In this document: positions 1 to 12,040 of the stretch, piece after piece
Position numbering within the stretch: the stretch's first letter is position 1
Layout: the number at the start of each line of letters is the position of its first letter
Assembly: GCA_010015585.1 (NCBI GenBank)
Contig: ML975169.1
Strand: one strand, 5' to 3'
Origin: Eremomyces bilateralis CBS 781.70
Taxonomy: Eukaryota
Length of the DNA stretch: 64,000 nt
Translations under genes and position numbers: made by a program
The notes under the pieces: model-generated
What the model was told of the DNA's origin: nothing
The model's database searches: none
The model's input: only the letters and a program-made list of their open reading frames with translations

Positions 1-457
1 AGATTAGGGCGGCAGAAAGAGAGGTAGAGCTTGCTCGACGTAGGGCCATTCGACAGGCTGATCGTGAAGCAAGATCGGCACAGGCACAGCTTCTCCAAGA
101 GTTAAAAACACCTCGAAACACCAGAAAACGAGCAAAAGAAGCCTCTCCACAGCAAATTGTACAGCCGCAGGTAATCAGCAGCGATGTGGAGGAGCTAGAT
201 AGCGATGGAGAGGAATCTGAAGGAATGGAGACTCAGACGCGGCGAGGTCGCATTTCCCGGCCACCATGATATCTTAAGGACTTCGATTTGGGCCCTAAAT
301 AAGCTTATAGTATCTCAGAATGTCATAACAACAATTTTTTCTAAATCTCTATTGTATATGGGCGCGAATGGCTGCAAAACTGAGTGCCCATCGCGAGCGC
401 TTATGACGCGATGGACCGTGCAAGGAGTGGTGCCGTGCACGTTGTGGGGAAAACCCA
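1..457 (+). mobile_element. 3' end of a pogo/Fot1-like (Tc1/mariner superfamily) DNA transposon: C-terminal transposase tail (pseudogene) and probable right TIR followed by TA
   Basis: The frame from nt 3 reads IRAAEREVELARRRAIRQADREARSAQ...METQTRRGRISRPP*YLKDFDL. This charged coiled coil plus TRxGRxxxxP tail is typical of fungal pogo transposases, and the TGA is probably from CGA. Repeated CCGTGCA..GTGG motifs at ~415-448 end at ...GAAAACCCA|TA, after which an unrelated coding sequence resumes. The catalytic domain is outside the window. Confidence 0.55.
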
Positions 458-1138
458 TAGATAGAATATTAGTTCTTATTTAGAAGGAGAAGCTGTTGTC
501 TTATCTAGAGGGCAAACATTTTGCCGGTCTACTTTTTAAGCAAAGACAAAGTTACCAAGATCTAACGACAGTATAAACCCTTTAGAAACCCTTTAGAAAC
601 ATATTCCTAACATGTTCAGGCATATATTTAAAAAATCTATAATGATCGCGATAGTATAATGGCGATCTGCTTTCTCAACTAACAGGCCGAGGTTTTTCTT
701 AAACAAACTCATTTTGAGATTGACATGTCGTTCAAGCGTATTCGACAGAAAGACCTAAACGAAATTATCTTTGCAGCATGGCTGAAAGATCACGGAAAAG
801 GTAGTAGTTACTCTATTATATTCCTACCTTGTTTCTAACCTATTTATATAGTTTTTACACTCGCTCGAGTACTTGTCAACACAAGTAATCCTCAGACCTA
901 TACCCTTTGCTTTATAAGGGTGTTTAATCTGATATCTCAAATCCTCCAAAGACCTATTAAATGGTTCCATCTTGATGGAGAAGGATTTGAAACAGTGACT
1001 GTTGATATGTGCTGGAAACAACTCAAAGGTAGCTATTTTAAACGCTCTTTAAATATGTTCCTAACATGTTCCCAGGGTTTGGGCGTTACCTTGAGTCAAT
1101 TGATCCAGAACGGCGTTCCTGGAGATGGCAAGTAAAGA

Positions 1139-1593
1139 NNNNNNNNNNNNNNNNNNNNNNNNNNNNNNNNNNNNNNNNNNNNNNNNNNNNNNNNNNNNNN
1201 NNNNNNNNNNNNNNNNNNNNNNNNNNNNNNNNNNNNNNNNNNNNNNNNNNNNNNNNNNNNNNNNNNNNNNNNNNNNNNNNNNNNNNNNNNNNNNNNNNNN
1301 NNNNNNNNNNNNNNNNNNNNNNNNNNNNNNNNNNNNNNNNNNNNNNNNNNNNNNNNNNNNNNNNNNNNNNNNNNNNNNNNNNNNNNNNNNNNNNNNNNNN
1401 NNNNNNNNNNNNNNNNNNNNNNNNNNNNNNNNNNNNNNNNNNNNNNNNNNNNNNNNNNNNNNNNNNNNNNNNNNNNNNNNNNNNNNNNNNNNNNNNNNNN
1501 NNNNNNNNNNNNNNNNNNNNNNNNNNNNNNNNNNNNNNNNNNNNNNNNNNNNNNNNNNNNNNNNNNNNNNNNNNNNNNNNNNNNNNNNNNNNN
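1139..1593. other. Assembly gap (N run)
   Basis: Run of N characters. Confidence 0.99.
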
Positions 1594-2324
1594 ATATTAG
1601 AATGTGATAATAATATATTATTTAGTTCAAAAGAGCTAGATCAACGCGACGTGGATCAATACTTTGCACGAGAGAAGTATGGAACCTACCACACCCAAAG
1701 AAGCAATCAAATGTCTGCTCGTTATAAGGATCATATGGGAAGAGAAAGTAGGCATTTTCTCTTACGAAACAACCACCTTAAGAATATACTCTAAACGTGC
1801 TTAGAACGAAAGCGAGAGAATAAAGAAAAATCTCTCCTTACCACAGCAGATGAAGATGATGAAGACATCGACGACGATAATACATCTGAAACAGCTTTAT
1901 CGCTGTTATCATTAACTAGAGGCAGTAGACAAAAATCGAGCTCTTTGAGAGGCAGATCAAAAAGATCTCGATTAAATTTAAGAGAAGACTCTCTTTCAAG
2001 CGCTGAGTAAGTTATTTTAAACTCTATTTAAATCCTTTTTATAACATATTTAAAAGACCTTCATCTACATAAACGATCCCTCTTCGGCAGAATACTCTTA
2101 ATCGTTAGTAAGAGCTTAAAGACGTTAGAGCTAGACTAGAGCTTCGGAGGCTAGAGGCTGAGATAGAAGAAAAGGAGCTAAGTAACGCACGAAGAACTCT
2201 AAAGAACGAAAAGCTAGAGTTAGAAATCGTAACCAAGCGGCAGACTTTGCAGCGCCTGGAGGGCGAGGATTAGATAGTAGTAAAAAGTTTCAACTTTCAA
2301 GCGTATTTGAATAAGGCTGCTAAG

Positions 2325-2448
2325 ATTTGTCCCCCCCTTGGAGTTTTGTCCCCCTCTTAGAAGTTTTGTCCCCCCTTAGAGATTTGTCCCCCCCTTGGAG
2401 TTTTGTCCCCCCCTTAGAGTTTTGTCCCCCCTTGGAGCTTTGTCCCCC
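2325..2448. repeat. Tandem array, 7 copies of ~18-19 bp TTTGTCCCCCC(C)TT(G/A)GAG; probable subterminal repeats of the element at 460-2456
   Basis: Read directly. The last copy ends TTTGTCCCCCGCGCTAGT, ~175 bp after the element's stop codon. Confidence 0.9.
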
Positions 2449-2689
2449 GCGCTAGTAAATAGTGGAAATTAGTGGCTTAATCAAACCTAGGGTATATCAC
2501 GGATCTTCCCCTAGGACAACTTCAACGCTTAATTCATTCATACTCTTGCTATCCTAATATAGAGGATATTACTCCCCCTCCAGATTGTCTTTACGATTCC
2601 TATGATAAAGCCTACAATGCTCTTAGGATCCATAGCATACAGCATAGCTACGGCTCCGTACTGAAGCGGAGCAAACCTCACAATTCTGA

Positions 2690-5600
2690 TCACGAGCGTA
2701 GCGAGTAATTTAAGTCGTATATAGGGTCAACTCATTTTCAAACGAGCCTTCTGATTGGCTCGTTTCCTGCATTCTGATTGGTCCCCATCCAGAACCACGT
2801 GACTTCAACTTCTCTTTCACTTCCTAACGTCACTTACCATATCTATTATATCTACTATCTCTACCACCTCTGCCATCTCTTACCACATCTACTATCTCTT
2901 ACCTCTTATGGATCTTGACCCCGGCGGTCGTACATGTCCGACCTGTCGCTCCTGGAAAGCTGATAAGGAGTTTACTTCGAAGCGTCGTAAACTACACGTC
3001 AAGAGGTGCTGGCGGTGTCGTTTCGGTCAGGATCACGGTCAGGATGATCCCGACCATGTAGGTTTTCCAGTGAAGATTCGAATACGTTACCGTTAAAACT
3101 AACCTGATTAGTCCCGTCATCTATATCCTCTCCGGCCTGCCGCTCCTCTACAAGCAGCCCCATCTCCTTCTCCGCATCCTCCCGCCCGAAATCTACATCC
3201 TCTCCGACCTGCCGCTACCCTACAAGCAGCTTCGTCCTCGCAATCAGCGGATACTGATGACGACACGTCCTGGAGGCGGGAGGCTTCCATATTTCACCGT
3301 GCCGGCATACATAGCCAGGATGATAGGGATATAGCGGCTGCTCGCAGGGACTATGCCACCATGTCCCGGGCTCACCGTGCAGCTAATCGTCTAGATCCTT
3401 CCGCGCAGCCATTACCGACGTTTGAGGATTTCCTCCGACAACGGGGTCTATCACCTCTACAGCAACCTAGTCAAGGTGGTCCTCGCCTAAATCCTATCTC
3501 TGAAATTGAGGGCGGTGGGCAACATCGTACACGGAGAGGTGAGCGAGTCCATCGTACCCGTCAACAGGAAGATGATGATCGTACGGAAGCACTTCGACGC
3601 GGAGATGTTCGCCTCGATCCTCGGTCCCCGGATTTCGACATCCAGGACACCAATCTTCCCGACCAGGATTGGGCATACGTCAAGGACTTCCATAAGGTGA
3701 TGGCTGATTTGAAGCTGGAGCACTGCCCCCAATGCGATGAACGGTGGTTTGATATGCATCTCGTGCGTGGCATATGCAAGCGATGCCGAGCTGACGACCG
3801 AAAGCGTAAAGATCTCCCGCCTCTCTATTCCGCCGAGAACCACTTAAATCCTGGCCCAGGCCCATCATATTACGGTCTTCCGGATCTTACTCAGGTGGAG
3901 GAGCTCCTCATCGCTCGCGTGCATTGTGCTGCGGAGGTTCGGAAAGTGAACGGTCTCCAATACCGTTATACCGGGCACGTCATTAACTTTATGAGAGATG
4001 TAGGGCGCGTGTATAACCGTCTCCCACTCCTCCTAAGAGACCTTGAGATCGTTATCCTTCGACCTGCCAACTGGAACCAGGAGCCTCGCATGCAGCGTCA
4101 ATTTCGCCGGGACTACCGCGTTCGCCGTAGTGTCATTGAGCAGTGGCTATTCCATCTTAAGGTATGTTCGCCGTGCCGTTGTTAAGTCGGTAGCTAACCT
4201 ATCTCTAGGCTTACCACCCTGGATATCGCGATATCGTCGTCGACCATAGCCTCTTACAGCAGCTTCCTGTTGATGATAATGTTATGGAAGCGGTCGGCGT
4301 TCACACCACCGATGAAGAGGATTTAGGAGGCGGCGATGACGATACGGGAGAAGAGGCCGAATACGTCGCCGCAGTCCCGGACCTCCTCCAGCCCGATACG
4401 GAGATAGAGCAACTTCGACAGCATGTTGATACCGCTGCCGAACGTCAACGTGTGCATCTTACGATGCCTAGTGTTCGATTGACTCCTCTATCTGAGTTTA
4501 ACCACTCTCAGCCTCTTTTAAGCCTGGCGTTTCCGAGCTGCTTCCCCTGTGGTATTGGGGACTTTGTTCACCCCCGTCTCCGGAAGGTAGACTATCGTGA
4601 CTATATCAAGCATCTGATGAGGTTCTACGATGGTCGTTTTGCAAAGCATCCCCGCCTACGGTATGTCCTTTTTAACACTCTCTTCCGGCAACAGGTTAAT
4701 ACCCGTGCATCTTACTTCGTTCGTCAACGTCCCGAGCAAGGTGATCTATCTCTTGAAGAGATCCGTGCCGCCTTTGCGGATGACTCTCCTGATGCCCAGG
4801 CCCTGCTCAACTCCATCGTCCGTTTTTCAGGGACCTTGCGTGGCACACGGCCATATTGGATCAGGTGTGGTAAGGAGCTTGAAGCTATCGTACAATGGAT
4901 CGGGTCCCCGCATATCTTTTTGACGCTGTCGGCCGCTGATTATCACTGGGATGATCTACAGCGTCATTTACCTCAATATGAGGAGTGGCGTAATGGAACC
5001 CCAGCGGAGCGGATCGCAATTTCTCGCCGCAATCTCCGCGACTATCCCCACATCGCCGCCTTCATCTTCCATCACCGTCGGGAAGCTCTGTACAAGACTG
5101 TGCTGAGCCCGAAGTTCAACCTCCGCGATCAATGGGGCCGATACGAATGGCAGGGTCGCGGCTCGTCGCACTCACACTTCCTCATCTGGCTTGACCGTGC
5201 CTGCCCCAACAGCGAGCTGGATCGTATCCCTGTGGAGGATCTCCCTGCCGCCCTTGAGACATTTGCACGGTTCTGGGGCGGTCATATCACGGCGGTGAAC
5301 CCCGAACCTTCCCGTCGTGTACGACCAGAGGATGAGCGGAGTGCTATCGCGTTAAGTCCCGATACGCAGGAGAATTCTCTAGCGCATCTATCAGCCATCA
5401 TCAATCGCGTACAGAAACACCATTGCACTAATGCGTATTGCCTCCGCAAAAACAAACGCACTAACCGGGAGGAGTGCCGCTTTTACGCCCCGTGGCCGAT
5501 TCGGGATGAGCCTGTTGTTACGAAGGCGGAAGGTAACCCTAGGTTCTTTAACTACCGCGGTATCCGGAATGATGATCGGTTGAACCACTTCTGCCCCGCT

Positions 5601-8440
5601 CTTATCACCGCATGGCTTGCTAATATAGATATCACGCCCTGCACGGGGAGCCGAGCAGTATTAGCCTACTTAGGAAAGTACTGCTCAAAGCCGGAGAAGA
5701 AGACGACCACCTTCCACGATATCCTTAGACATCTCCTAACGGTCGTTCCTGAACATACGCGGCGGCCATTCCTTTCGCTCGTTACGAAGATCATGAATCG
5801 TCTAATTGGTGAGCGCGATTGGTCGGCGCAAGAGGTTTCCCATATCCTTCTTGATCTCCCCCTCAAGGTCTCTTCACGTATGGTGATTTCCGTCGATTGT
5901 CGCCCGGAGGTGGAGCAGTCCCAGGGAATCGAGATCCGGGATGATGGTTCTATTCAGAGCGGCCTCTCCTCTCTTCAGAAGTATAAGCAGCGGCCTGATG
6001 CCTTCGACGACGTTCCCTATCTTGAGTTTCTACGTTGTTATGACTTCGCCAAGGTTAGTTCTATCCGGAAGAGGGGGGAAGGGAAAGAGCGGGCGTTGAA
6101 TTACTTCCCACGATATTCAGCGGTCGGCGATACCCGCGAAGACTGGCATCGCGTTAAACTAATGCTACATCACCCCTTCCGCAGTATGGATAACCTCCTC
6201 CAACCTGATCCACGTGGTCCCCTCTATACATCGTATTCTGATGCATATTCCGCGTCTTGTGGAGATGGTCGGCATGACCATCCGGTCGATCATTACGACC
6301 CTATTATTCTTGGGGACGAGGATGAGTTCGAAGAGGGAGCCAACGAGGAGGAGCATCACCAGGGGAGCTGGGATGAGCTCGCCGGTCAGCTTCCTGGTCG
6401 CGATAGAACCGTTCTGGAGGATCCGGATGCCCTCGGTCAACGACCTCTCGACCGTGAGTACGATTGGGCGTCTCACATCGGTAAGCACGCGTATACGAAG
6501 GAGTGGTGGGCTACTGCGAAGGCCGACTATCCCCACGTCAATGAAGCTGTTCTATTCGCACCTGACACCGTTGAAAAGCTGAACGCGAAGCAACGTATAG
6601 CATATGATATCCTGACGACCCATTTCGCACGCTATGTCGCGACATACACTGATGGGCCTCAGGTCCTGATTAACGTCGATGGCGAGGCAGGCACAGGGAA
6701 GTCTTTTATTATTCAGCTCATCTCCTCGCATCTCCAGGAGGAGGCATCACGGCATGGATTACCGAATCCAGTTCTTCGTGCCGCGCCTACGGGCGTCGCA
6801 GCTCATAGTCTCTCCGCGTCGACCCTACATACTCTTTTTCGTCTTCCTGTTCAAGATGTTGGGTCTCTCGATCCCCTCCGGCCGGCAGCTCTTCAAGCCG
6901 CTCAGGCCACCTTCCGGGGCGTACGGTATCTGATTATCGACGAAAAGTCTATGATCGGCCTTCGCCAGCTCTCCTATATTGACCGTCGTTGCCGCGAGAT
7001 CTTTCCTGGCGTAAACCAGTCTTTCGGTGGTCTTAGTATTCTCCTCTGTGGCGACTTCTTCCAGCTTCCTCCAGTCTTAGCAACTGCTCTTTACACCCAG
7101 AAGAGAGCGCTAAATCTAGATGAGCAGCATGGGCATAATATCTACCACCAATTCGACCGAACGATCAAGCTTGATGAAGTCGTTCGGCAGCAGGGCAATG
7201 ACGTTGAGTCGATTCAGTTCCGCCAGGCCCTCGACCACTTACGGATGGGCTCTACAACTCGTGACGACTGGACATTACTTAGTACACGAGTGCAGGCTAT
7301 GCTTCTGTCTGAAGAGGTAGATTCGTTCCGGGACGCTATCCGTATCTTCGGTAAGAAGGCGCCAGTCGCTATGTTTAACTACATTCGTTTACGCGATCTC
7401 CGTTCTCCTGTCATGATATGTCGAGCAATTCACGAAGGAGGGTCGAAGGCAGAGAAAGCTCCGACCAACGAGGCAGGAAACCTCCATTCTGAGATTCCGA
7501 TGGCGTTGGGAACGCGTGTCATGTTGACAGAGAATCTCTGGACCGAACGGGGTCTGGTGAACGGTGCGATGGGCACAGTACGTGATATTAGCTGGCGGGC
7601 TGGTACTGATATCCAGAAGGATCCCCCGTCTACACTCCTCGTTCAATTTGATCGATATAATGGACCGACGGTAGATGTAGGCGGCCTGGCTTTGGTCCCA
7701 ATCTTCCCATCACGCCGCGAGTTCTATATGGGGAATAATTCGTGCTCACGTATACAGTTCCCACTGACTCTTGCCTATGCCATCACAACACATAAGTCGC
7801 AGGGAATGACCCTAGCACGGGCTGTGCTGGATATTTCGGAGCGGGAGTTCGCGCCTGGCCTAACGTACGTTGCGGTCTCCCGTGTCAAATCTCTCAAAGG
7901 GATTATGTTTGAAGCTCCATTCGACTTCCACGATTTGACACCCCGGAAGGAGAGCGAGACGATGGCGTTCCGGAAGCGGGATGTGCAGAGGAGGGAGAGT
8001 CAGCATATCACGGCAGAGGTTTGTTTATATGATTAGAATCAATCGCGCGGTATTGACATAGTACAGGATCTCCGACGGGTGATCGGATCGTCATCCTTGG
8101 GTGTGGAGGAGTTCCCGGAAGGCGGAGACTGAGTACTATGAGCAAGGATGTTGTATGGCGTAGGATTAGGATCAAAATATCACGAGATAGATCGGTCAGA
8201 CGATCAGACGATCAGACGAGAAGAGGGGATCGTTTTACTTCCTACTTGGGAAGTGTGCACTGGTTACGAAGATGCTGTTTTTAAGCGATTTAGCGATTTC
8301 TAAAAATCAATGAAAAAGTAGAAAAGTAAACGCCCTGGTCGGGATTCGATGATCTGTGCTCTAGGAAGGCAGAGGTCACGTGCCTACGCTCGTGATGATT
8401 TGGGGCAGAAAGCTGACTTTATGCACCACAGTACTATTTT
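2690..8440 (+). mobile_element. Full-length non-canonical Helitron (FoHeli/Helitron2-like rolling-circle transposon), ~5.75 kb
   Basis: It starts TCACGAGCG and ends ...GTACTATTTT. A 13-bp inverted repeat lies at 2689-2701 and 8384-8396 (asymmetric, 44 nt inside the 3' end). There is no TSD, removing it restores the MULE reading frame, and it encodes a Rep-helicase. Confidence 0.9.
2908..8132 (+). CDS. Helitron RepHel transposase (N-terminal Zn fingers, DUF6570-like region, HUH Rep/Y2 domain, Pif1-family SF1B helicase); ~1691 aa, predicted exons 2908-3057, 3112-4161, 4209-8018, 8067-8132
   Basis: Rep motifs: FLTLSA, YEWQGRGSSHSHFLIW (HUH) and YLGKYCSK. Helicase motifs: GEAGTGKS, LIIDEKSM, GDFFQLPPV, YAITTHKSQGMTL and YVAVSRV. 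Three phase-0 GT-AG introns with CTAAC/TTGAC branch points keep the frame. The last exon is less certain (unspliced stop at 8036). Confidence 0.93.
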
Positions 8441-10049
8441 ATTAAGACACGATATTACTACCAGTGCGATCGATTCAGAAAGTATCAGTCAAGAGCAAGG
8501 ATTCTGAACACAAGCACGCGCGCAACAGGATGTCCCTTTAAGCTTGTTATCTTCAAGATAAAGCAATTAGACGATACCGACAAGTAGAGGCTAGAGGTTC
8601 AACATAAGCATCATAACCACTCTCGATCACTCGACCCTAGTACGCACAATGTCTATCGTAGACGTACACCGGCTCAAAAAGACCTAATCGAATCAATGAC
8701 AAATGCTGGGTCCCGGCCGATACAGATATTGAATGCAATTCAAAAGGAGGATCCGGAAACTCGAGTCTCTGCTACCGATATTCGTAACGAGAGAAAGGCA
8801 ATCAGAGTGCAGCACTTGAATAGGAGGAGTCCGATTAAGACGTCACTAGATAACCTGTCTACGTTGACCCCTACACCTGCCCCTATATCTTCCCCTATTC
8901 TATCTTATTCGTCTTTACCAGTCTCTGTTACTGTGCCTATTCCTATGGCTCGATCCCCTCTACAGCCTACTTGGCAACCTCCGTCGTTAGAAGAGTTCTT
9001 TACTAATATCGAACGTCGACGGCTTCAGCCTGTTCTATATAACTGTAGTAACTTTGGCATAGTGATCAATTTTTTGGCAGAGACGGGGCAGGAAAATGAC
9101 CCGATAGAACTGATAGAAGCACGGAATATGGCTCTCGCTATAAGGGGAGTGTATACTTCCTGCACTCCAACAATGGCATAGAATTATCACTTTGGAGATA
9201 TGAATGATTTCTACGCCGAAAGATTTGCACAAGTCGGTGCTCAAAATTTTATTTCTAGGTCTCAGGATGTGCGCAGACAGCGTCCGAAGAGGGCTGCAGT
9301 AGAGAGGGCTTCAAATGCTTAGAAAGGACTTAGCCCGCACAAGAGACAGCGACGTCAGTAGAATATATACTTTGACTCATAAATTGGACAAGACATCGAG
9401 ATACGCTTCAAACTTCAGTCGAAGGAGCTAACAATAGTGATATATTAAATCTTAGTATAGGATTTGTTGATGAAGCTCAACTGACCTCCGAATTTGGTTA
9501 GATGAACTTTCTAGGTGATGAAATGGGTCACGTGAGGTCAGCCGAACCTTTTTCGAGGTCAGCCGAACTGTAGTCACGCTCACTACAGTAGGAGAGCGCT
9601 AGTGCCATAAACCGACCCCTGATGGTAACGCTGAATATAAGCGATGCTTTGTGACAGACTTGGGCTTCGCCCAGTCTGTGTGTTGTGGCCTTGCGGCTTA
9701 AGGCAGAAGGGATGGGTAGACCGTTTGCCCACAGATGTAAATATCAGATCGCAGTGAGAGAGATCTTCTCCTTCTCTCTTTAGCAATTCAACAGCGTTAC
9801 CAGCTTACCAAATCCTTCGTGATTTGGGCCCATGACAGAAACATTGATTATTGAAATAGAAGACTAATTGACTTTTCTTGTGACTGCAAATGCTCTTTTA
9901 ATAAGAATATCCACCTTCGTTTGCTCTGATGCCCGTCAATGAGCAGCGTGACACTGTCTTCTGTCACTCTTCAGCGCGATAGTTCCAGCCTTGAGCCGGA
10001 GAGGAGCAGCCTGCCTAAGAGGACTGCGAACAGCGGTCAAGTCACCGTA

Positions 10050-10830
10050 TTAGTTGTCTTCGCTATCCAAACCCAAGTCTCCGCTCCGCCATGAGATGCC
10101 ACCATGGCCGCCACCGCCGAGGCCATTGTTTGATCTCCATGGCCCTTGATGGCCTCCGTAGATGTATGATCCTCCACTCGGTGGGTGCATGATAGTGCCT
10201 GGTCGAAGCGGTGCCCACTCTCCGTTTGGTCCCGCCGAGTCACCCGCAGGATTCCAACTTCCGTCTGTCTCCTGGTACCATGGGCCAGTGTAAACACCAG
10301 TCAGCGATCCATTGACGTTGGCGCCACTACCAGCCGAAGGATACCTTCCAGGCAATCCACCAACTCCACCACCGCCCCAGCCAATGTTGGACGAAGGGAA
10401 GGTCCCGCTTGATCCAATACCCCAGCTATTGCTCGGATAGGGAGGTTGATTCTGTACCCCCCAACCGCCATCAACACCAGGATTCGAGGAAGGATAGTTG
10501 CCCCCCATTCCACTGCCCCAGCCACCATTACTTGGGTAATTTGAGCCCATGCCGCCAGTATAATATCCTCCGCCCGATGGATATAGGCCGCCGCCTCCGG
10601 TCATGATTCGAACCCCTGGGTTGGGTCCTCCAGAATTCTCGGGGGCAGTAGTGGAGGAAAAATCATCTGTTGCGTTGCCGGCGTTGGAGTTATCGGTGCC
10701 GTTGACTGTCATGGCGATCGATCTCTTTGACAAACTTACTAAGTTTAAGAATAAGGAATTGAAGTTGAGTTATCTCTACGCTAAGGACACATTGAAACAA
10801 AGCAGAATCGAAAGGAGTATAAGTAAAGCA
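10050..10830 (-). pseudogene. Gly/Ser/Asn/Pro-rich low-complexity protein, probably secreted, with a disrupted 5' end (pseudogene or unusual splicing)
   Basis: The 227-aa ORF has repeated YPSSN/GGWG units. In frame upstream is the hydrophobic ALLILLSILLCFNVSLA followed by TAG (10776-78) and TAA (10770-72). There is no in-frame ATG, and a TE end lies ~25 bp upstream. Confidence 0.45.
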
Positions 10831-10854
10831 TTTCAGCATTTCAGCCGTTATGTA

Positions 10855-11055
10855 CAGGGGGCGAACGAAAATACTAGAACAGTTTTTTAAAACCCTTGCA
10901 TCCCAGGGTTCTCATTCGATTAAAGCGTTCCGCACAGTCCTTTCTTCTTCCTTCTTCTAAACGTATACCGTCTTTTCAAACCCCTTGCATCCCAGGGTTC
11001 TCATTCGATCAAAGCGTTCCACATAGTTCTCTTCTTCTTCCTTCCTCTAAACGTA
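10855..11055. mobile_element. Terminal fragment of a Tc1/mariner-like element (TA|CAGGGGGCGAACGAAAA...) containing a diverged ~90-bp tandem duplication
   Basis: TA followed by a CAGGGG start. Copies 10893-10966 and 10982-11056 share CCCTTGCATCCCAGGGTTCTCATTCGAT...CTAAACGTAT. No partner TIR is in the window. Confidence 0.45.
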
Positions 11056-11243
11056 TGTTGTGATATAGTATTGTGATGGATCAGAGGTCTATCGACCTGG
11101 ATGCCTTGTGGCCTTGTGGCCCGTTTGCTCTGTAAACACCAGAACAGATAAACGCCTCGCACACCTTAGATAGATTCCTCCTTCATAGCAACAATTCAAT
11201 GTTTGCCTCACGATTGGAGATTCCCGACAGTGAGACTCTTACA
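11056..11243. mobile_element. Probable solo LTR (188 bp, TGT...ACA)
   Basis: It begins TGTTG exactly where the duplicated unit breaks off and ends CTTACA exactly where Tc1 transposase homology (LRFAR) starts. The flanks do not form a TSD. Confidence 0.45.
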
Positions 11244-12040
11244 CCTCCGATTCGCCCGGGATTTCGTTGGATTCGACTTTTGCCGGGCCCACGCCACCGA
11301 CGAGATCTCCTACGAGAGGGGGACGGGTGGTAAGCAAGTTTGGGTATGGCGCCTGTATCACGAGGCGTACGAACCGAAGATGGTCGAGCCTAGGACCACT
11401 GGCAAGACCATTTCACGGATGATCTGGGGCTCAATCTCGCGTGACGGGAGGTCAGATCTAGTGATCATGGAGCGCGACGAAGACTCTCCAAGGCAGGGCT
11501 ATTCCGCAAAATCCTACATCGCCGCGTTGGAGGAGGGGCTCCTCCCTACGTACGAACCCCGGGATATTGTTATCCAGGATAACGCAAAGATCCACACGGC
11601 AAAAATCACCCAGGAATGGCTGGAGAATCACGGCATCTGGGTGTTTGATTGGCCAGCCAATTCTCCGGACCTTAACACTATAGAACACATGTGGCATCTA
11701 TTGAAAACGATGATCAAGGAGCTCCACCCCGAACTGATGCAGATGGGGGCATCGGACGAGGCACGGGAGGCGATGAATAGGGCCTTGAAGGAGGCGTGGT
11801 GGGCGATCCCCCAGGAAACGATTCGCCAGCTAATCGACTCAATTCCGCAACGTTTACAAGCGGTGATCAAGGCAAAGGGCTGGCATACGAAATACTAGGC
11901 TACTCGCAATTAGACAATAAAAAAAGTATATACTAATCGCTTTCTCTGCGAATTTGAGCGTATCTCACAATGGGGTTGGTCGTGGTAGTGAAATCACGTG
12001 GTTGACGACCCTGCACAGACTTCTGTCCTGTTAATTAGTG
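11244..12040 (+). mobile_element. 5'-truncated Tc1-like transposon: DD34E catalytic domain (stop at 11898) and right TIR ...TTAATTAGTG|TA
   Basis: Motifs LRFAR..TDE, MIWGSI, QDNAKIH and WPANSPDLNTIEHMW are present, with 34 residues between the second D and the E. The HTH domain and left TIR are absent. Confidence 0.85.

Follow-up and report, generated by a model that had tools for sequence, protein, structure and literature searches.

The window examined here, a 64,000-nucleotide stretch of contig ML975169.1 (assembly GCA_010015585.1) from the Dothideomycete Eremomyces bilateralis CBS 781.70, carries near its left end a 5,750-bp transposable element with a single long transposase gene, lodged in the coding remains of a Mutator-like element (MULE). 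We are confident that it is an intact, autonomous-looking Helitron2 (HLE2) of the type of FoHeli1 and FoHeli2 from Fusarium oxysporum, inserted without a target-site duplication (TSD) at TGAT/A (the slash marks the point of insertion) in a deleted, high-copy MULE. Coordinates of the features discussed below are collected in Table 1.

With its introns the gene fills 5129 of the 5750 bp, preceded by a 5' region of 217 nt and followed, after the end of the open reading frame (ORF), by 404 nt up to the 3' terminus. The predicted spliced product of 1675 aa has no internal stops and carries, in this order, DUF6570, an HUH Rep domain and a PIF1-type helicase. Pfam detects DUF6570 (PF20209) in the ORF at 3112-4185 with E 1e-20 and 75 bits against a cut-off of 24.3, and Helitron_like_N (PF14214, 1.7e-37) and PIF1 (PF05970, 2.8e-22) in the ORF at 4209-8036; exon 1 has a weak match to Stc1 (E 0.0076), below the Pfam cut-off. 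Homologues hold all three domains in a single protein. Their tblastn pieces overlap by 9 residues around 4173/4194, and in blastp the spliced protein is matched across the exon 2/3 junction in one piece by 11 of 11 homologues. The motifs HSH, YLGKY, GEAGTGKS and LIIDE are present, in columns that are invariant in a 17-sequence alignment (exon 3 residues H321, H323, Y487, Y491, K831, D911 and E912). The HUH motif, the two tyrosines and the PIF1-type helicase of the predicted protein support its assignment to the rolling-circle Helitrons, as an initial annotation of the sequence had proposed. The same annotation had seen neither an AP-endonuclease domain nor captured host genes. This agrees with our Pfam scan, which found no AP-endonuclease or OTU domain C-terminal to the helicase, and with the extent of the gene itself, which leaves no room for captured genes. 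A signature of repeat-induced point mutation (RIP) is not seen (TpA/ApT 0.74).

Two ATTGG (reverse CCAAT) boxes at 2754-2758 and 2777-2781 and a CACGTG at 2796-2801 lie in the 217-nt 5' region, which is probably the region of transcription start. ATTGG occurs within the first 200 nt of 11 of the 12 elements compared, where ~0.28 per 200 nt would be expected, which suggests that the box is a conserved part of the promoter. Within the N-terminal portion of the transposase, which is rich in proline and poorly conserved, a 46-nt segment is present at 3113-3158 and again at 3185-3230 (72 nt apart, 87% identical); a variant without 192 nt in this repeat region (joint from 3039 to 3232) occurs in X3, one of the public runs described below.

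Table 1. Positions of the Helitron, its gene and termini, and the surrounding MULE remnants in the window.
Feature	Position	Strand	Remarks
Helitron2-type element	2691..8440 (alternative 2690-8439; T at 2690/8440 ambiguous)	+	5750 bp; contig joint from 2689 to 8440, MULE homologue matches abut at 2690/8441
MULE coding remnant, left (...KPHNSD)	2553..2690	+	tblastn
MULE coding remnant, right	8441..9355	+	homologue searches
5' arm of asymmetric terminal inverted repeat, TCACGAGCGTAG	2690..2701	+	
Sub-terminal 5' hairpin	2740..2765	+	9-bp stem, carries first ATTGG box; DNA fold
Exon 1	2908..3057	+	50 aa from ATG at 2908; CxxC...CxxC, zinc-finger-like
Intron 1	3058..3111	+	54 nt, GTAGGT...ACTAAC...TAG; inferred from splice signals and frame
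Exon 2	3112..4161	+	350 aa; DUF6570 ~3808-4161
Intron 2	4162..4208	+	47 nt, GTATGT...GCTAAC...TAG
Exon 3	4209..8036	+	1275 aa and stop
Exon 3 domains	Rep ~4602-5186; PIF1-type helicase ~6612-7913	+	
Exon 3 motifs	HSH 5169-5177; YLGKY 5667-5681; Walker A 6681-6704; LIIDE 6930-6944	+	
Imperfect palindrome (TCACG...CGTGA) overlapping 3' arm	8376..8395	+	DNA fold; CACGTG at 8377-8382
3' arm of asymmetric terminal inverted repeat, CTACGCTCGTGA	8384..8395	+	44-45 nt before 3' end
Imperfect stem-loop between 3' arm and 3' end	8401..8428	+	10 pairs, two interruptions; DNA fold
3' terminus CTATTTT, then host A	8434..8440	+	

The insertion and its MULE host

The limits of the element can be read from the coding sequence that it interrupts. 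At the left junction the window reads ...CACAATTCTGA T(2690) CACGAGCG..., the start of the element also being written (T)CACGAGCGTAGCGAG, and at the right junction CTATTTT(8440) ATTAAGACA or, in longer form, ...CACAGTACTATTTT(8440)-ATTAAGACACGA. Joined by script, the two flanks form a single frame, ...SVLKRSKPHNSD/IKTRYYYQCDRFRKYQ..., and ten MULE homologues aligned to the window by tblastn break at this very point: the left match ends at 2690 in nine (at 2684 for P0154), the right match begins at 8441 in all ten, and in nine the residue numbering is consecutive over the break (...KPHNSD, then V or I and KTRYYY...). Removal of 5750 bp therefore does rejoin a MULE frame, and uninterrupted MULE proteins read NSD-(I or V)KT here, both as the initial annotation had anticipated.

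Empty sites and copy number were approached through public runs that contain this stretch, compared as contigs placed on 2300-9000 at a likeness of at least 85%. X1 and X2 come from one sample, X3 carries the same organism label but belongs to another study, and X4 is labelled as another organism and accounts for a small share. Three contigs of X1 and three of X2 pass directly from 2689 to 8440, skipping exactly 5750 bases, with one base that fits on either side of the joint. These contigs represent paralogues of a high-copy MULE derivative that lack the insert, and not necessarily an allelic empty site, because the summed contig depth is ~1,100-11,600 for the MULE flanks but 150-270 for contigs that match this Helitron copy exactly. 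Since the empty copies are joined with zero bases gained or lost, and the homologue residues are consecutive, there is no TSD. The search for empty MULE sites that the initial annotation had recommended thus succeeded among contigs of the same organism, and its description of a 5750-bp insertion without TSD at a TGAT site holds, the target reading TGAT/A (or TGA/TA). TCTGATATTAAG is the empty-site sequence expected under the reading preferred here. Other MULE variants among the contigs have GTC or GTCA between 2690 and 8444.

What the Helitron entered was not a functional transposase gene. Of the right remnant, 8441-8863 matches residues ~46-183 of full-length homologues and 8951-9355 matches their C-terminal ~140 aa; homologue residues ~184-733, including the MULE catalytic domain, have no counterpart in the tblastn alignments, and a TAG stop lies at 8585-8587. 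The MULE pieces in the window give no Pfam match, the MULE transposase domain PF10551 included. With its TAG read as X, the right piece retrieves 36 protein relatives, 33 of which contain PF10551; the best named ones, from Macrophomina phaseolina (72%) and Alternaria alternata (62%), are labelled 'FAR1-related'. The host element is an internally deleted, stop-bearing, non-autonomous, high-copy MULE derivative, and the original wording 'MULE gene' has to be given up. A comparison of 1594-2560 with 9200-10400 found no MULE terminal repeats, only chance-level inverted repeats of 8-10 nt.

Some further sequences near the MULE deserve mention. Tandem repeats of ~19 nt (TTTTGTCCCCCCCTTAGAG-like) at 2323-2448, just upstream of the left remnant, may be MULE sub-terminal repeats. 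Beyond the right remnant, two direct copies of GAGGTCAGCCGAAC (9534-9547 and 9555-9568) are followed by a hairpin with a perfect 8-bp stem, ACTGTAGT...ACTACAGT (9567-9589), and the TCAGCCGAA core of 9534-9589 is the start of FoHeli1. We considered a second Helitron end here and rejected it, as no TNAT precedes it, no T-run end accompanies it and no Rep ORF lies nearby; the repeats and hairpin could be MULE sub-terminal sequence or the remnant of another element. In X4, a 422-nt MULE contig covers 8440-8861 with 2 differences at a depth of 5.5, which could mean a shared or transferred element or contamination.

Termini, relatives and affiliation

The element carries asymmetric terminal inverted repeats (TIRs), as first described: a perfect pair of 12 nt inside the element, whose 3' arm is sub-terminal. 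With the flank included, 2689-2701 pairs with 8384-8396 at 13 of 13 positions; the chance of the 5' 12-mer recurring reverse-complemented within the last 120 nt is ~6e-6. The last 101 nt (8340-8440) fold with -17.1 kcal/mol, better than shuffled sequences (z -3.19). The 3' end is CAGTACTATTTT, and a CTRR end is not present, which, together with the asymmetric TIRs, bears out the designation of the Helitron as non-canonical.

These ends can be compared with the groups described in two papers, PMC5148889 and PMC11417382. FoHeli1 and FoHeli2, placed in Helitron2, measure 5-6 kb, insert at TNAT/A, start TCAGCCGAAGGCTG and TCAGTCCGAAGGAC and end TATTTT; of their 12-bp inverted repeat, the 3' copy stands 38-51 bp short of the end (PMC5148889). 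The FoHeli1 start given in the initial annotation, TCAGCCGAAG, is correct according to Table S1 of that paper. The window element shows the same kind of end (CTATTTT), a 12-nt inverted repeat, a spacing of 44-45 nt, TGAT/A and 5750 bp. It also shares with FoHeli1/2 a single DUF6570-Rep-Hel gene, the lack of an endonuclease and a position inside another transposon, which is frequent for FoHeli1/2 (PMC5148889). HLE2 as a whole is defined by short TIRs and a stem-loop after the right repeat, and DUF6570 has been reported by HELIANO as specific to this clade (PMC11417382); the window element has DUF6570 and an asymmetric TIR whose sub-terminal right arm is followed by an imperfect stem-loop. TIRs of 12-16 nt, DUF6570 with RepHel, and the absence of a TSD are further points in common with Helitron2/HLE2 (PMC11417382, PMC5148889). 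The initial placement in the Helitron2/FoHeli kind therefore agrees with both sources. Helentrons resemble the element in belonging to the HLE2 side and in their TIR-bearing ends, but the C-terminal AP-endonuclease or OTU domain is lacking here. Overall the element fits the published FoHeli-like description point for point and is structurally closest to the Chaetomium globosum type, in whose members the ATTTT end, repeat and TNAT/A target are retained, an asymmetric TIR takes the place of a 5' hairpin, and imperfect palindromes lie over the repeat (PMC5148889). The C. globosum elements differ in TIR sequence, and CHGG_05501 (P0066) is ~39-40% identical to the window protein and falls in a sister clade.

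The nearest full-length public proteins, one of Fonsecaea monophora and one from a metagenome, are 48% identical to the window protein. F. oxysporum Helitron proteins show 42-45% identity over 88-99% of the query (coverage of at least 90% for all but P0065). Exhaustive searching with residues 1-1200 of exon 3 gave 24,800 cluster representatives at E 1e-3, 9,483 at 1e-10 and 1,375 at 1e-30, and no full-length match above 48%. Judged by protein identity (~48-50% to the nearest public relatives), the element is a new family, without a member in public protein sets, of an already described fungal Helitron2 kind. In a FastTree phylogeny of 60 Rep-Hel proteins (SH-like supports, midpoint root), the window protein groups with L004, L005, L006, L008, Fonsecaea and Penicillium capsulatum in a clade of 12 rows (support 99). 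The sister group of this clade (support 100) has 34 rows and contains all Fusarium, Metarhizium, Hirsutella and Chaetomium proteins.

The relatives designated L were obtained from a metagenome scan, which returned 70 loci and in which 270 of 403 candidate stretches encode relatives. Near full-length matches were present at 26 loci. Eleven of these, from soil metagenomes, are built like the window element at their ends, with a TIR pair of 11-18 nt, and each of the 11 has TNAT before the 5' arm or overlapping it. In L005 (TTAT/CAAAG), L008 (TAAT/CGGAG) and L026 (TGAT/GGTTG) the arm follows TNAT directly. A 3' end could be placed in 9 loci. Seven of them belong to the 11 with a TIR pair, and here the distance from 3' arm to end is 36-57 nt. 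A run of at least four T forms eight of the nine ends, and L033 ends TATTT; the next base is A in six, G or C in two, and the contig stops in one. L004, L037, L007 and L010 end GTATTTT. The closest relatives start CAAAGCGAGCTTGCGAGC (L005) and TAAAGCGAGCCTGCGAGC (L004), visibly like CACGAGCGTAGCGAG. At 7-66 of L023 stand two tandem copies of the 5' terminus (TGCCAGCGCAAGCGTCAAAATTCCCCGTC), 30 nt apart, which recalls the 'multiple 5' termini' of some FoHelis.

Copy number and alternative explanations

Contigs identical to this copy have uniform depth in X1 (225-270), X2 (152-162) and X3 (102-105), about that of single diverged relatives, and this exact copy appears to be single-copy. Nothing else covers 3868-4091 at a likeness of at least 85%, and no second copy was found in the window, either by self-BLAST of 2001-9400 or by tblastn of nine homologues, which matched only 3199-8024. 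In X1, 175 of 588 contigs reach a likeness of at least 99%, MULE flanks included. The same genome (X1-X3) contains many diverged relatives of this Helitron, with a likeness of 85-95% in the parts that encode Rep and helicase (4300-8100). Their likeness to this copy breaks off shortly downstream of the stop codon, and loose ends lie at 8096-8097 in X1, X2 and X3 alike. Contig variants that share the 5' end (joint from 2720 to 2950) or the 3' arm (TAG inserted after 8383; joint from 8300 to 8387) point to a few further elements with related ends. X3, which we guess to be RNA, contributes a 1539-nt contig that matches 3112-4159 with 0 differences and extends beyond this match by 191 and 300 nt at its two ends. 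The limits of this match coincide with the predicted borders of exon 2, as they would in a spliced transcript, giving one hint of expression. The MULE left flank is shallower than the Helitron in X3, opposite to the DNA runs. No intron-skipping joint is among the 15 of 22 joints listed.

The exact position of the cut allows two readings, since one base fits on either side: TC...ATTT (2690-8439, cut TGA/TA) or CA...ATTTT (2691-8440, cut TGAT/A). The initial annotation had the element start with TC and end with ATTTT; each of these is possible by itself, but both together are impossible for an insert of 5750 bp. The cut one base to the left is formally like the canonical Helitron arrangement, an A/T target and a TC start, and T2690, as well as A2689, takes part in the perfect inverted repeat. 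Moreover, FoHeli1/2 are written with a TC start, a one-T ambiguity at the 5' end is remarked for FoHelis, and the 3' end given for FoHeli1 copy 1.5 is shorter by one T (PMC5148889). We nevertheless regard this cut as unlikely. An end of at least four T is found in eight of the nine relatives with a placed 3' end and in FoHeli1/2, the published target of the group is TNAT/A (PMC5148889), and in L005, L008 and L026 the first base of the element after TNAT is C or G. The relatives accordingly favour TGAT / CACGAGCG...CTATTTT / A, by which the T of the apparent 5' TC would belong to the target. A junction of joined ends cannot separate the two cuts, because both give the same string, ...CTATTTTCACGAGCG (four T).

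The apparent 5' TC, the possible A/T target and a hairpin near the 3' end might also suggest a canonical Helitron1 with a degenerate 3' end. This is very improbable, given the lack of CTRR, the perfect 12-nt asymmetric TIR (13 nt with the flank), the presence of DUF6570, reported as specific to HLE2, and the similarity to F. oxysporum Helitron proteins; Helraiser, a Helitron1 (PDB 7lcc), is matched over only 170 helicase residues (E 1e-16), its Rep domain being unmatched. Equally hard to credit is an assembly chimera that joined a Helitron to MULE flanks through repeats. Both elements are repeated in the genome, a 455-N assembly gap lies 1.1 kb upstream, and among the rows listed no contig crosses the left junction. 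The right junction, however, is crossed with 0 differences by a 646-nt X2 contig (7824-8469), and the two junctions meet at exactly one MULE codon, with the TNAT/A target of the family. A more serious contender, to which we give somewhat less than an even chance, is an intact-looking but immobile relic, a single old insertion of a diverged family that is no longer active. The single-copy depth, the lack of a second copy in the window and the divergence of the related contigs, 85-95% alike and not identical, all suit this view. Evidence for the opposite comes from the 1675-aa ORF without stop or frameshift and with all catalytic motifs intact, from the absence of RIP, from two perfect TIR arms, from an insertion younger than the spread of the MULE derivative, and from the X3 contig that spans exon 2 from border to border.

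Several observations weigh against the reading as an intact, autonomous-looking FoHeli-like Helitron2. The depths of identical contigs are like those of single diverged relatives and lend mobility no support, so that the 'possibly active family' of the initial annotation goes too far. Joined-end or circle forms are absent from the 15 of 22 joints listed, which is uninformative as contigs drop rare forms. The 5' terminus shows no hairpin, its first 51 nt folding like shuffles (z -0.36), and the start is not TCAG; the element is thus not FoHeli1 or FoHeli2 themselves, whose starts form 5' hairpins (PMC5148889). The site, TGAT/A or TGA/TA as in FoHeli1/2, departs from the generic HLE2 target, given as T/T or TTTT/(T or C) (PMC11417382, PMC5148889). 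For the metagenome relatives, TIR and T-run, and not empty sites, served to set the ends by eye, and the other 15 of the 26 near full-length loci have no convincing TIR, several lying on contigs that end short. The tree holds no Helitron1, Helentron or curated Helitron2 references, so that the grounds for assignment to Helitron2 are structure, DUF6570 and nesting next to the F. oxysporum proteins. These proteins in turn are not tied to named FoHeli subgroups (none of 5 locus tags occurs in 8 supplement files), and taking their clusters as FoHeli1 or FoHeli2 is a guess from length only.

The Helitron and MULE lie at the border between an AT-rich block (window 1-2000, GC 31%, with the 455-N gap at 1139-1593) and a gene-rich region, and the rest of the window contains ordinary fungal genes, including those for a phosphoketolase, a lipoate ligase, MFS and OPT transporters, SURF1 and CENP-T. 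The phosphoketolase shows 99% identity to the E. bilateralis protein and 71% to the next best match. An ORF at 11170-11898 with a DDE_3 (Tc1/mariner-type) transposase domain (E 9.4e-16) is a transposon remnant 2.7 kb downstream.

Transposition model and implications

By analogy with Helraiser and with the joined-end amplicons of FoHeli1, we infer that the element would transpose by a rolling-circle mechanism by way of a circular form, its two ends being brought into contact by the TIR arms. Helraiser shares the HUH-Y2 Rep and PIF1-type helicase, and presumably the same rolling-circle chemistry, but the window element differs from it in having TIRs and DUF6570 and no CTRR. In our model, the HUH/Tyr nuclease would nick the plus strand at the 5' end, directly after the host TNAT, and the helicase would peel this strand off in the 5' to 3' direction. 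Recognition of the 3' end may depend on the 3' TIR arm together with the stem-loop and T-run. Pairing of the TIR arms in the displaced single strand could then bring the ends together for circle formation, and the circle would integrate at another TNAT/A.

How far does this extend to a living lineage? It is conceivable, and we propose it only tentatively from the predicted gene, the X3 contig and the ends of the relatives, that the element belongs to a live Helitron2 lineage that is transcribed and correctly spliced in its host and whose 5' end is a C directly after the target TNAT. If so, a 'TC' start would not be a requirement in this group, and the nick would be positioned by the TIR arm and the target T. 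Its length of 5.75 kb and its exactly known ends would then also make the element a compact candidate for reconstituting HLE2 transposition.

The FoHeli-like kind is already described as widespread in Pezizomycotina. Eremomyces is not among the 102 genomes surveyed in 2016, and no paper pairing Eremomyces with a Helitron turned up in the literature searched. The present element provides a base-exact FoHeli-like Helitron2 outside the Sordariomycetes, validated by empty sites. Together with the 11 metagenome relatives, it shows that a clade sister to the Fusarium and Chaetomium proteins has kept three traits throughout, namely the TNAT target, a T-run end and a 3' TIR arm in sub-terminal position. 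The TIR sequence itself varies from family to family. These findings leave the known mechanism unchanged, and they help to annotate fungal Helitrons that are missed by canonical TC...CTRR finders.

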